The notes under the pieces: generated by a model
What the model was told of the DNA's origin: nothing
Database searches by the model: none
Seen by the model: only the letters and a program-made list of their open reading frames with translations
Shown: positions 1-39,436 of the stretch, piece after piece
How the letters are laid out: each line of letters opens with the position of its first letter
Numbering within the stretch: the stretch's first letter is position 1
Position numbers and translations under genes: made by a program
Assembly (NCBI GenBank): GCA_003971905.1
Contig: RSEE01000013.1
Location: 806,001 to 870,000, forward strand
Direction of reading: 5' to 3'
From: Moniliella sp. 'wahieum'
Taxonomy: Eukaryota
Length of the DNA: 64,000 nt

Positions 1-3000
1 TGCCGGTGCTGCCAAATTTGTGGGCGAGATCGACGACAGACTTATGTCGCAATACCCAATGAATGGGTGTACCCTCGCCGATGGCCCCAAGCTCGATCAT
101 GATGTTCTTGACATAGTTGGCGTCCCAGTCATCATATCCTGCCGTATAGCGGCGGCGGTACTGGTAACGCTCTTCGGCTGAAATGGATCGCACGACACCG
201 GCACACCGTACACCATCAGTAGGCATCCGATGTGGAGCGTGCCTGGATGGGATCTCCCGCCAAGTCGGAATCTGTATACAGCGCAAATGGCCGGTGCATC
301 TGATGTTGGGGTCAACCTCAGGCCCTTTCCTCGAGTATGGACAGGTAGCGAAGGAAGTCATCGACTGCTTGATGATGCTGCTGCTGCATGGGTCGGCAGC
401 GGCTCTGCTGAGGGGCCGTGATAGCGAAGAGTCAGGCCGGCCCATTCGTTGCAGCCCACAGTCCCGATCCGATCTTCCCCTGATATGCCTTGCGCAAGGC
501 TGGGAGGGATGGGGGTTCAGGGTCGGCACGGGGCGGTATCATCCGTACGGGATGTGGGAGAGTCCGGATCCACGGGGCTTTGATGTGGTGCTTTGCCACC
601 ACTTCCTCGATGAACTTTGGTTGGCTCAGGTACAGCTCCCCACCGATCCGATCGTATTGGCATCCCAGGTGGTAGTGAAGGGGACCGTTACCACGAACAT
701 CAATGTGTGTGTTTATCTCGGCCATAAACTCCTCGTACTTTTGGTGTGACTTGCATGCGAGGAGCAGATCGTCGGTGTGGACCGCCAGGAGGATCTGCTC
801 ACCCGGTGGTGCAGCGCGCACGAACAAGCAGGGCTCGGTCAAGCTTTGCGTGAAGCCGAGCTTGTCACGCAGCAGGTTCCGGATGTATCGTGCCCAGTTT
901 GCTCCGCTCTGATGTAGCCCGTATAGACTCTTCTTGAGACGCCACACGCGACCACCCGCTTCGGGGAAGTAGGGGGGTGGGCGGATGTAGACTGCTTCTT
1001 CGAGGGGGGCGTTCAGGTACGCTGCATTGACGTCCGCCGAGAAGAGGCCAAACTTATACTTCTCGGCCAGCACGACGAGGGTCAGGATGGCAGGTGTGCG
1101 CACCGATGGTGCGAACGTCTGGCCCCAAGTCTCGGCCGATTGTTGGTGTCCGCCCGCGACAAAGCGCGCGCGGTGGCGCAGGAACCGGCCCTCGGCGTCC
1201 GTCTTTGTGGTGATGCGCCATAGTCCTATGAGGATTTGTGCACCCGGTGGTGGGTACGTAGCCTCGTAGGTGCCGTATCGCGCGAGTGTGGCCACCTCGT
1301 CGGCCATAGCCTGCTTGACCATGGCAAAGGAGGGGTGAGTCTCGAGACCCTTGAGCGTCTTGGGAGCGAGGGGTACGCCATCCTTGGTGAGCTGAACCGT
1401 GTCCGGGTGGATGGGTGCGCTGAGAGCAGTCATGGCGGCGTATTCGGGAGGTTGAACTGTGTCGGCAAACGGGGGGGCGGATGTGTCAGGTAGGGGGCGG
1501 GCGATGCCGATCTCTGGTGCGGCGCAGTGGGGCGTGGCGGCTGCAGCACGAGCATGGTAGGTCGTGTCGGTGGGGTCGTCAGCGATTGGGAGTGTGTGCA
1601 GGTCGAGGGAGGTGCGGGTGGTGCGCTGGCGGAGGGGGTAGCGGCGCGGAGGGGGGGTGGTGGTGGGAGCGGGTGTCTGGGGTGTGGCGGCGGTTCGGGG
1701 CATGGGTGCTGCCGCGGCTGGCGGAGTAGGGTTAGCGTCTTTTTCACTGTCGATTTTAATTTGAGGTGATTTGGAGATGTCGGGTGGGAAGTGGTCGGGG
1801 TGGAGATGGGGGTAGATGGCGTTGCCCCATTTGTACGGTTTCGACCAGCGGTAGGTGAAGGTACCCAGGGATGGTTGGTATGTGGCGAAGAGCCATCCCT
1901 TTGATCCGCGCTGATGGTGGTATCCTACCAGCATACCTTCCTCTGCCCGCGCGCTGAGCTTGTGCTCGCGGCGTGACTCGGGCAGATGGAGGTATGCAAC
2001 GCGGCCAAAGGGTTGCATCGGTAACGAGTATGCGTGGCCTTTGTATCGCTCAAATCGCGATTTGTTGTCTTCCCCGGATGTTTTGAGTGGCATTTGGTTT
2101 TGGGTGAAGCACGCAGCGTGGAGGCTGTGTTCCCACCAGTCCGACGTCGGAAGACCTGTACCCAAGAGCAACTGCCTTGCACGAGTCGTTATGGTTCGGA
2201 TGGCACGCTCAGCCACACCGTTGCTAGCACTCTGCCCCGGGATTGTCCGTTCTGACGTGATGCCTTGCTCGTCCAGAAAAGGTTGCAGTGCGCTTGTCAA
2301 TTCGGGGGCGTTGTCCGTGCGCAAAGTCCGCAGCAGTCTGTCCGGGCCGTAGCGTTGCTCCCGCAATATGAGGTTCCGCAGTTCCTTCGTTGCAGCGCCC
2401 TTTGTCGGGATCGCTGTGGTGAAGACGTACCGCGTGAAGTCATCAACGGCGACGAGGGCGTATCCGTGCCCCATGCCGGTTACCCGGGGGAGGTCTACTA
2501 CGTCGACGTGGAGGACCTCGAAAGGTCTTTTGGATCGGAGGCGGTCCCGGCTCGGATGGGGCGATGCTGTCGCTAGTGCCACCGCGCATGTTGGGCAATC
2601 CCACTCTGAACGACAGAGGGAGATATGCTTGGCTGTGACGCGGAGGCCTGCGGTTTCCGATCGTGTAAGCCAGGGGAGGAGGTCGATGGCTGCGTGGTTC
2701 CAGCGTTTGTGGGCTTTAGAGACGTGGTCCAGGGCCAGGGATGCTGCGAGGGAGTTTGGGGTTGAGGGTGGGTCGGCCGGTTTGATCGGTTTGGTCGCCA
2801 TGGCCCGCAGGGGTGTGGGTGGCGTTCGCGGGTTGTGTAAGATCGTGAATTGATAGTCACTGCCGGTTACTTTTCGTAGGGTGGATCCTGGGTTACCAAG
2901 CCAGATACCCTTCTGGTGTGGGGCGAAGTATGATGCGATTCCGGTGTTCGACAGGTGTGCTACACTGACGAGATTTCGGCTGAAACGGGGCATGTATAGG

Positions 3001-3218
3001 CTGTTGGGGAGTTTTATCTCCATTTGGTGTCCTCCTAAGCATCGGATACGGATTGTGGCCGTGCCTCGTCCTTCCGCCTTTACATGTGTCCCGTTAGCAA
3101 CCTCTATCTCGTCGTCGCAAGGGGTCATGGATGTGAAGACGGATTTGTCTTTCCAAATGGATGGGAATGCCCCACTGTCATATAATGCCCGGATGATTCG
3201 CATTTCGCCCCCGAGTTC
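1..3218 (-). CDS. pol: copia Pol: aspartic protease, integrase, reverse transcriptase, RNase H (partial; indels below 432)
   Basis: Protease LYDSGA and VANG; integrase HKRWNH..CPTC, LHVDV, RTDNAPE, NGVAER; RT RHRARFVAGG, DVNAAYLNA, LKKSLYGLHQSG, VHTDDLL; RNase H YTDSDLAGD..RSTS in a shifted frame near 230-280. Confidence 0.95.
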
Positions 3219-4466
3219 CTAGTAGTCAGCTGTGCCCGCATCAACGTCAATCACTTCAGACTCGGGAGAGCTCGCTCTCTGAGCGACGTGAGCGTTGGCT
3301 CGGCCTGGGTTGCGCGGAGGGACAACAGGTTTATTAGACGTCGCGCTGCGCCAGGGTTGGTTGGTGCGGTCTTGCCCCTTGGTCTTTGTGTCCGCGAGGT
3401 TGTCGTCGCCGGCTTTGCCCCCGCTGGAGTTTTTTCCCCCGCTGGTGGGTCGTCCCCCGCTGTCGGGTCGAGTCCAAGGCGTTCCTCCGTTGACCGGCTT
3501 GCCTCCGTTTCTCTTCCTTTCTCCACCGGGATACGTGGCGGCTGGTATGTCCATCACGGCCTGCCGTAACTTGTCTAGACTCGAGCGCTCTTCACGCTGG
3601 CGAATGCTCATGTCGCGTAAGCCGAGTAGGATCCCAGTGCGTTCCTGCTCTTCCGTAAGTGGGATGCCCGCTCGCGTCAGGCTTGCACTGATCTCTTCCA
3701 TGTAGTCGAGGTAGTCTCGACCCGATCGGTTTCCTTGGTCGGCCGAAAAGTAGCGAATGAGTAGAGGCCCTCTGTTTGCGGTAGGCGTATATCCATACCG
3801 CTGACGCAGCATGTTCAGCGTGTCCTGGGTGCATGATATTTCGTGGTGGGTGCGGATCGTCCGGAAGAGGGTTGACGGCATGGCTTCCCTAAGAAGGTTG
3901 TGCAAGCGTCTGTCGAGGTCCTCGGTGAAGTAGCGGGAGCTGCGACCATTCTGGACGACGTCGCTTGCGTGGGGGTGGGCATCTGTTATCGCGAAGAGAA
4001 ATTCGTCTTCCCAAGCGCTGTAGGCGGACGGGTCTTTGTTCAGATCAGGCCACTTGATATTCTTGGTGGGAGACTCGCGTAGTGATCTGTAAAGGTCGTA
4101 CTCGGGTCGCGAGGCTGCGCCTGTAGGTGCCCCCAAAGTTGCGTTGGGTTGAGTTTCCATTTGGTGGATGTTTTGCACCACAAAATTCGTAGCCCGTCGA
4201 ACCCAGTTTGTCGTGATAGACGTAGGTTCGTCCTTCCATCCAAGCCACTCGGCTCTGTCGTGTATAGCTCTGTTGATCTTCTCTTTAACGACATCGATGT
4301 CGTTCGTCTTCTTGAACCACAGGTGCGCTTCGGCGCAAAGCATCATGAGTTCCTCGTTGTCGGTGCCAATCGGTGGCGGATCGCGACCGGTTGGTGTCCA
4401 GTAATCGCGCTTGTTCACCATTGTGGTGTCGCTGACCGAGAGATCGGTGTTAGCGTTGGCGCCCAT
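3219..4466 (-). CDS. gag: copia Gag (~415 aa, starts MGANANT; no CCHC knuckle seen)
   Basis: ORF between PBS and pol; capsid-like segment YSAWEDEF...MLRQRYG...DYLDYM...ILLGL; basic Gly/Lys-rich C-terminus. Confidence 0.88.
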   Translation of the reverse strand: MGANANTDLSVSDTTMVNKRDYWTPTGRDPPPIGTDNEELMMLCAEAHLWFKKTNDIDVVKEKINRAIHDRAEWLGWKDEPTSITTNWVRRATNFVVQNIHQMETQPNATLGAPTGAASRPEYDLYRSLRESPTKNIKWPDLNKDPSAYSAWEDEFLFAITDAHPHASDVVQNGRSSRYFTEDLDRRLHNLLREAMPSTLFRTIRTHHEISCTQDTLNMLRQRYGYTPTANRGPLLIRYFSADQGNRSGRDYLDYMEEISASLTRAGIPLTEEQERTGILLGLRDMSIRQREERSSLDKLRQAVMDIPAATYPGGERKRNGGKPVNGGTPWTRPDSGGRPTSGGKNSSGGKAGDDNLADTKTKGQDRTNQPWRSATSNKPVVPPRNPGRANAHVAQRASSPESEVIDVDAGTADY

Positions 4467-4526
4467 GGTTGTGGGTGTAGTTTTGGCCAGCTCAGGGATG
4501 AGCAGATAAGGATGTAACTCTGTCGG

Positions 4527-4540
4527 CCTCGCTACTACCA
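4527..4540 (-). promoter_or_regulatory. primer-binding site TGGTAGTAGCGAGG (initiator-tRNA-like)
   Basis: Starts 5 nt after the LTR-terminal CA; TGGTAG is complementary to the ...CUACCA 3' end typical of eukaryotic tRNA-iMet. Confidence 0.65.
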
Positions 4541-4545
4541 CAGAA

Positions 4546-4682
4546 TGTGAGCACTGAACGTCGTATTGGACTAAGAAGCTTCTGCGACTGACTCGTCCAG
4601 AAGACTGGTGCGAGCTCGGAAGGAATGAAAGCTGACTCACGTGACTCAGGGTCCGCGCGGTCCTAGGACGGATGTCACCACA
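4546..4682 (-). repeat. 5' LTR (~137 bp, TGTG...CACA)
   Basis: TGTGGTGAC...TGCTCACA termini followed by the PBS; partner LTR is outside the window, so the boundary is +/-2 bp and unconfirmed. Confidence 0.65.
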
Positions 4683-39185: not shown

Positions 39186-39436
39186 CGCCACCGTAGCCAC
39201 CGTTCCCCCTTCGCCACCTTAGCCACCGTTCCACCGCCGTTCCGCGGTCCACCATTGCCACCTTAGCCACCGTTCCCCCCTTCCCCCTTGCCACCTTAGC
39301 CACCGTTCCACCGTTCCCCCGGTCCACCATTGCCACCTTAGCCACCGTTCCCCCCTTCGCCACCTTAGCCACCGTTCCACCGTTCCCCCGGTCCACCATT
39401 GCCACCTTAGCCACCGTTCCCCCTTCGCCACCGTAG
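39186..39436. repeat. compound minisatellite built from GCCACCTTAGCCACCGTTCC subunits
   Basis: Repeated CCACC(T/G)TAGCCACCGTTCC blocks alternating with GGTCCACCATTG and CCCTTCG linkers. Confidence 0.92.

Follow-up and report, generated by a model that had tools for sequence, protein, structure and literature searches.

Ten diverged families of copia retrotransposons in the genome of Moniliella sp. 'wahieum' share an arrangement in which gag and pol lie in one reading frame, separated by a single UAG. The stop codon is fixed and common to all ten, and the sequence that follows it shows conservation at the nucleotide level. Judging from the sequences, the best reading of this arrangement, and a likely one, is programmed readthrough of the type III (UAG-G) kind. 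One genomic RNA would be translated from the gag AUG; most ribosomes would terminate at the UAG, releasing Gag; a minority would insert an amino acid via a near-cognate tRNA and continue into PR-IN-RT-RH, with the outcome being the Gag excess that the particle needs. The signal would consist of the UAG and the motif GRN-NNC-GSG, joined in most families by a G/C-rich helix with a 5' arm that starts at about +5 to +9. In this scheme, what we infer is readthrough as such, how often it occurs, which residue is inserted, and on which structure the window family relies.

How Pol is produced in stop-separated copia elements has been an open question since Tca2, a single element whose 300-nt junction gave no answer. 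Ten diverged families within one genome make it possible to pinpoint the constrained bases, and they provide strong and weak structures as well as natural stop-less derivatives for comparison. They would also extend UAG-G readthrough, known mostly from plant viruses and gammaretroviruses, to a fungal case that is not viral.

The window element

The window, that is, the whole stretch of 64,000 nucleotides that was analysed, carries on its minus strand a young copia element (a member of family A, the window family) in which a 415-aa gag is followed by a single TAG and an in-frame pol (Table 1). The features of a Ty1/copia LTR retrotransposon are all present, namely, domain order, TG...CA LTRs, a primer-binding site (PBS), and a 5-bp target duplication, which is exact in copy L081 and one indel off at the window copy. 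The minus strand reads as the earlier note had quoted it, with TAG at 3221-3219, and the rest of that description agrees with the sequence as well: a 415-aa gag and more than 920 pol codons share one frame with one stop between them (the frame is open for 494 codons 5' of the TAG, where the ATG at 4466 gives 415 aa, and for 928 codons 3' of it), the TAG lies 13 codons before the catalytic protease Asp, which is codon 14 after the stop, and an AUG is found 15 nt after the TAG.

The order of the Pfam matches after the TAG, PF22936, PF00665, PF25597, and PF07727, corresponds to PR-IN-RT with a copia-type RT, and the best named matches to Pol are Ustilago proteins, at 22-32% identity. A Pfam search gave no Gag domain match in the 415-aa gag. 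In the ESM Atlas, gag was matched to a TYA Gag cluster (0.90) and to copia-Gag clusters (0.87-0.88), which are leads only, and it shows 24-32% identity to parts of gag in families B, C, and F. The candidate Gag/protease cleavage site presumably resembles that of Ty1; in A, B, and C alike, its His (an Asn in family C) is found 22 residues upstream of the TAG. The TGA at 434-432 that closes the pol frame in the window copy sits within an indel run, and another copy reads 1146 codons. Elsewhere in the window, a tandem array of 9-33-nt units occupies positions 39208-39420.

Table 1. Features of the family A element in the window (positions are those of the window)
Feature	Position	Strand	Evidence or remark
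5' LTR, 160 bp, TG...CA	4521..4680	(-)	LTR pair 99.4% identical in L089
PBS, complementary to the anticodon arm of spliced host tRNA-Tyr(GUA) from tRNA position 40	4507..4520	(-)	8 contiguous, 11/14 matches
gag, 415 aa plus TAG	3219..4466	(-)	open reading frame, gag comparisons
R-A-N-A-H-V-A, candidate Gag/protease cleavage site	3282..3302	(-)	translations
In-frame UAG, gag/pol border	3219..3221	(-)	57/57 copies and nine other families
3' context +1 to +9, GAA CTC GGG	3210..3218	(-)	fits GRN NNC GSG
Weak local hairpin	3185..3215	(-)	not above shuffles
AUG at +16	3201..3203	(-)	reinitiation candidate; absent from most families
Aspartic protease domain, DSG at 3179-3171	2940..3182	(-)	PF22936, E 1e-11
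Integrase core	2232..2531	(-)	PF00665
9-nt stretch within integrase, perfectly complementary to the +5 to +13 arm	2302..2310	(-)	candidate long-range partner, lead only
Reverse transcriptase	579..1253	(-)	PF07727, E 6e-37
pol frame as assembled, 928 codons	432..3218	(-)	remaining RT/RNase H broken by indels in the window copy
3' LTR	~200-360 nt left of the window start	(-)	paired with the 5' LTR

The same stop in ten copia families

When the genomic copies of the window family were compared, a check that the earlier note had proposed, TAG was found in 57 of 57 pattern matches, with the stop codon left free in the pattern. Because these near-identical copies all carry TAG, an assembly or sequencing error is excluded as its origin; the accompanying premise that errors in this assembly are mostly indels was also borne out, with 2 substitutions and 32 gap bases in the 5070 nt over which the window element was compared with another copy. 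The one DNA sequencing run listed does not cover the junction. The copies belong to one recent burst, and 27 of the 40 that were scored reach the top score over 1101 nt. The 57 identical stops are, therefore, not independent evidence of selection and amount to a single evolutionary sample.

Independent samples come from the rest of the genome, which was searched with Pol, PF22936, and PF07727; 80 stretches, a subset of the matches, were read. We identified nine more copia families (B, C, D, E, F, H, J, J2, and K) in which TAG closes gag just before the protease. Pol identity among the TAG families is 22-69%, and synonymous sites are saturated except in one pair. The TAG is present in every copy of B (20/20), C (2/2), F (4/4), and J (4/4), in 9 of 13 copies of H and 6 of 9 junction matches of D, and in the one copy each of E, J2, and K; the J2 copy has a further change of frame ahead of the catalytic Asp. 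Two further families with one copy each, G and I, contain a nearby TAG-G that, in the assembly, does not share the frame of pol, and they were set aside before the motif was counted; G fits the motif save for a one-base offset, and I does not fit. The junction was not readable in 12 stretches (L105, L118, L126, L130, L132-L135, L138-L140, and L142), and no native single-ORF family was found among the stretches read.

In the RT tree, families A-F, H, I, and K are grouped (96/92) and J/J2 fall outside; a single RT clade of all stop families is not rejected (p-AU 0.41). Two proteins, P0001 and P0002, are near families B and D. P0060, a Pol from another sample, clusters with family I (100/99); its sequence begins six residues upstream of the protease Asp, and it may be another stop-separated member.

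Conservation of the 3' context at the nucleotide level

All ten families fit the pattern UAG-GRN-NNC-GSG, in which G at +1, C at +6, G at +7, and G at +9 are invariant and +2 is a purine. The nine nucleotides are GAA CTC GGG in A, C, and K; GAA CTC GCG in B and H; GAC AGC GCG in D; GAC GGC GCG in F; GGA TAC GCG in E; GGG TGC GCG in J; and GGA CAC GCG in J2. The invariant C at +6 and G at +9 are each the third base of a codon, and the second codon stands for six residues across the families (L, S, Y, G, C, or H). Identity at fourfold sites in Pol is 12-38% when families are compared, with the exception of E and F, at 82%, which leaves about nine independent lineages. As a control, among 237 Pol columns common to the ten families, one has the same third base throughout, and this one is forced by Met/Trp; the third base is shared in none of the 216 columns with variable amino acids, and in 2 of 424 columns in a control with six families, figures that come from pairwise alignments of error-prone copies and so overstate variability and inflate the contrast somewhat. 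The constraint at +6 and +9 looks to be one that acts on the RNA.

The earlier note held that the element sets its Gag:Pol ratio either by UAG readthrough or by reinitiation at the downstream AUG. The comparison favors the first part of that proposal, given the UAG-G and the nucleotide-level 3' motif in ten families, with readthrough itself being what we infer from them; the second part does not hold as a general mechanism. Families B, C, D, E, F, H, and J, that is, seven of the nine that could be assessed, have no Met between the stop and the catalytic Asp, so that reinitiation is unsupported as a general rule. The broader possibility that Pol is made apart from Gag, through such reinitiation or from an internal promoter, does draw on the AUG at +16 in A, eight residues before the catalytic Asp, on a Met three residues before it in K, and on a weak promoter in the Tca2 junction (PMC2194720). 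We nevertheless consider it very unlikely, since it leaves the shared frame and the motif unexplained, the candidate cleavage site 22 residues upstream of the stop in A, B, and C is expected if the protease N-terminus derives from gag, and in Tca2, Pol followed the LTR promoter (PMC2194720).

RNA structure near the stop

The structural component of the putative readthrough signal differs among the families. Long hairpins occur right after the stop in J (z -5.1) and J2 (z -4.5), with none of 200 shuffles as stable, and the 7-bp inner helix that J and J2 share, as read from the folds, contains three double-sided changes and one single-sided change. In J (the J families, J and J2, are represented by L109, L110, L123, and L125), the protease Asp lies 55 codons after the stop, and an 84-nt hairpin fills the first 28 of these codons. 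A 10-bp stem that begins at +5 is present in family D (z -2.8). Stems beginning at +5 to +9 also form in E, F, H, and K, most of them without significance (z -0.4 to -2.2); none of the nine pairs in the D/E/F helix shows a compensatory change.

No significant local hairpin was found in A, B, and C (z -0.1 to +1.6); that of the window family, at z +0.5 to +1.1, is not above shuffles, and a pairing seen in the fold, between the 3' arm and sequence 40-50 nt before the stop, is not significant either (z +1.2). The earlier note had drawn a parallel with the pseudoknot of murine leukaemia virus (MuLV). In a simple helix-pair search, as distinct from a full pseudoknot program, no pseudoknot above shuffles was detected in the window family, B, or C, and the best H-type arrangement of the window family was equalled by 25 of 100 shuffles. 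A partner farther away is a candidate. In all three families, the longest stretch of perfect complementarity to the +4 to +18 arm is located in the same 90 nt of integrase; it measures 9 bp in A (at +909), 8 bp in B (at +821, tied with one at +1775), and 9 bp in C (at +868). Among 629 control offsets, 13 place all three best partners within 100 nt, and one does so with at least 8 bp. The partners lie at non-homologous codons, and therefore, a long-range helix into integrase in A, B, and C is a lead only.

Natural stop-less derivatives

Two of the families have given rise to copies without the stop. In D, an 81-nt in-frame deletion removes the stop together with the motif in 17 of 25 copies, and five aligned copies with this deletion also share a deletion of about 240 nt that removes the gag start. 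This derivative (L069, L070, L072, L077, and L079) is a stop-less, N-terminally shortened gag-pol fusion with LTRs that are 99-100% identical; its 5' deletion carries a 3-nt filler, and the 17 copies compare with 8 without the deletion. The other D junction matches, out of 9, have TCG (2) or AGG (1) in place of the stop; D-like copies with TCG or AGG are L137:3446-3501, G000:C4:887439, L107, and L108, and those with AGG are truncated, with DSS at the protease site. In H, 4 of 13 copies lack the stop: three (L117, L128, and L144) form a 94.5%-identical subfamily in which a net 30 nt are missing and the hairpin is also lost, and the fourth, L131, lacks 24 nt. All three independent natural deletions across the stop are in frame, which fits a picture in which Pol works as a Gag fusion and the stop-less copies would borrow Gag in trans. 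Because the stop-less D and H lineages have multiplied, the stop is not required in cis.

The derivatives also bear on the view that no dedicated signal exists, either because the host has reassigned UAG or has an amber suppressor tRNA, or because the stop is a lesion that stop-less elements have helped to spread. The stop-less D and H lineages could indeed supply Pol in trans, within their own families; however, no stop-less copy was found among the 57 copies of A or the 20 of B, and one lesion cannot account for a context conserved across ten diverged families. In this host, UAG does not serve as a general sense codon: sets of 1100 Pol codons from each of A, B, and H contain 11-32 TAC and 16-23 CAG but no TAG, and the anticodon is GTA in 31 of 31 tRNA-Tyr genes, a count that covers tRNA-Tyr backbones. 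Taken as a whole, this explanation is extremely unlikely.

A different alternative is that the TAG serves as a 3' splice acceptor (YAG/G), with inefficient splicing removing the stop and generating a gag-pol or pol mRNA. TAG/G, which we take to fit the acceptor consensus in all ten families, is a good acceptor, and on that account splicing keeps some probability, albeit a low one. When generic motifs were scored (as opposed to a host-trained model), CTRAY was found 8-11 nt upstream in A, B, and H, and the sequence upstream of the TAG exceeds 70% pyrimidine in D, F, and H; yet CTRAY is missing within 45 nt in 7 of the 10 families, a consensus donor is missing within 1.5 kb in H and K, B has no phase-0 donor, the only phase-0 donor of A sits in the LTR, donors are not shared across families, and in H a CAG that immediately precedes the TAG competes with it. 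Plant copia elements are often spliced near the protease, but there splicing yields the Gag RNA (PMC5580714). An acceptor, moreover, leaves the conserved +6, +7, and +9 and the hairpins unexplained, and the upstream junction is kept in 55 of 55 downstream-anchored copies of A. The natural deletions tell against splicing too: none of the three has GT..AG ends or a TAG/G join. The idea that the D deletions are retro-copied introns was rejected on the same ground, as their ends are not GT..AG.

Primer-binding site and host tRNAs

The PBS of families A-F pairs with spliced host tRNA-Tyr(GUA) from nucleotide 40, as checked against the host tRNA genes, at 14 of 14 positions in C, 13 of 14 in B, and 8 of 14 in E. 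Priming in A-F is thus of the Hemivirus type, from the anticodon arm, and not by initiator tRNA-Met. The PBS is different in H, I, J, and K, where it is presumably of the iMet type. tRNA-Tyr is a classic UAG-decoding tRNA; as the stop motif is also present in H, J, and K, whose PBS is another one, a link between tRNA-Tyr priming and readthrough is not needed. The primer is not new: the same type, the tRNA-Tyr anticodon arm, has been described for Copia-50_PHord, a rust-fungus copia (PMC10886601). The host has 31 intron-bearing tRNA-Tyr genes with varied introns, and about 41 equal-scoring tRNA matches, of which the one sampled is tRNA-Ala(AGC), also point to high copy numbers.

Relationship to known stop-separated elements and readthrough signals

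The closest known counterpart is Tca2 (pCal) of Candida albicans, likewise a copia element with gag and pol in the same frame split by one stop, there a UGA (PMC2194720, PMC7175516). Pol of Tca2 appears to come from full-length RNA, with the bypass mechanism unresolved in these reports (PMC2194720, PMC7175516), and its 300-nt junction gave no readthrough in Saccharomyces cerevisiae (PMC2194720). Unlike Tca2, with its UGA, 8-nt purine-rich spacer, and predicted pseudoknot, the present elements combine UAG and GRN-NNC-GSG with simple hairpins or none, in ten families. Tca2 is the only stop-separated copia confirmed in the largely open-access literature searched, in which we found neither a UAG-separated copia clade nor the UAG-GRN-NNC-GSG motif.

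Type III readthrough is defined by UAG-G and a 3' structure (PMC3159437, PMC3542737, PMC13517186), with GGV, GUA, and GAU as the listed triplets, and in tombusviruses, readthrough is driven by long-range pairing (PMC3234231). As in Tombusviridae, luteoviruses, and gammaretroviruses, the UAG is followed by G in all ten families, and UAG GGA GGC of CIRV fits the pattern of +1 G, +2 purine, and +6 C. Unlike the type III signals, the triplet is GAA in A, B, C, H, and K and GAC in D and F, with a listed triplet only in E, J, and J2; the constraint on +7 G and +9 G is not among the type III features described in the texts consulted; and the host of the signal is a retrotransposon rather than a virus. 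The 3' structure is strong in J, J2, and D, whereas the window family has no local one, and A, B, and C have the long-range candidate. Moloney MuLV has UAG-G at the gag/protease border, with the stop within the protease N-terminus; the same placement may hold here, but in the window family the search detected no compact H-type pseudoknot behind a purine-rich spacer of 8 nt.

The mechanism would, then, work like type III readthrough, although the window family departs from it in two listed features, the triplet and the local structure. What argues for readthrough, and makes it quite probable in our estimate, is the combination of the shared TAG and motif, the hairpins of J, J2, and D, the lack of a Met before the protease, and the in-frame deletions. 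Counting against it are the window family without a local hairpin or pseudoknot, the stop-less lineages, a UAG-GAA outside the listed triplets, the out-of-frame TAGs of the single-copy G and I, and the precedent of the Tca2 junction. More tentatively, and with the odds rather against the proposal in its entirety, the host copia elements could share an undescribed UAG readthrough signal, UAG-GRN-NNC-GSG, that acts at the sequence level, together with a helix formed locally in some families and, in A and its two closest relatives, with integrase sequence about 0.9 kb away; the signal would span two deep RT lineages and may have arisen twice, and stop-less derivatives that make Gag-Pol only would emerge again and again and, borrowing Gag in trans, become more numerous than the parent (17 copies versus 8 in D).

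Conserved nucleotide context around an in-frame stop is also on record for a clade of fission-yeast Ty3/gypsy elements, Tj1, Tcry1, and Tosmo1-3 (bioRxiv 2022.12.06.519325); unlike the present families, those are gypsy elements with a type II-like GAA-UGA-CT context. Outside the Moniliella genome, the search for relatives found none in viral contigs and two metagenome loci that are distant (25% identity) and not close kin. At these loci (L101:1086-1088 and L102:3869-3871), a copia element has a CCHC gag followed by an in-frame TGA CTA G, which is a type II readthrough context, about 50 codons before the protease motif.
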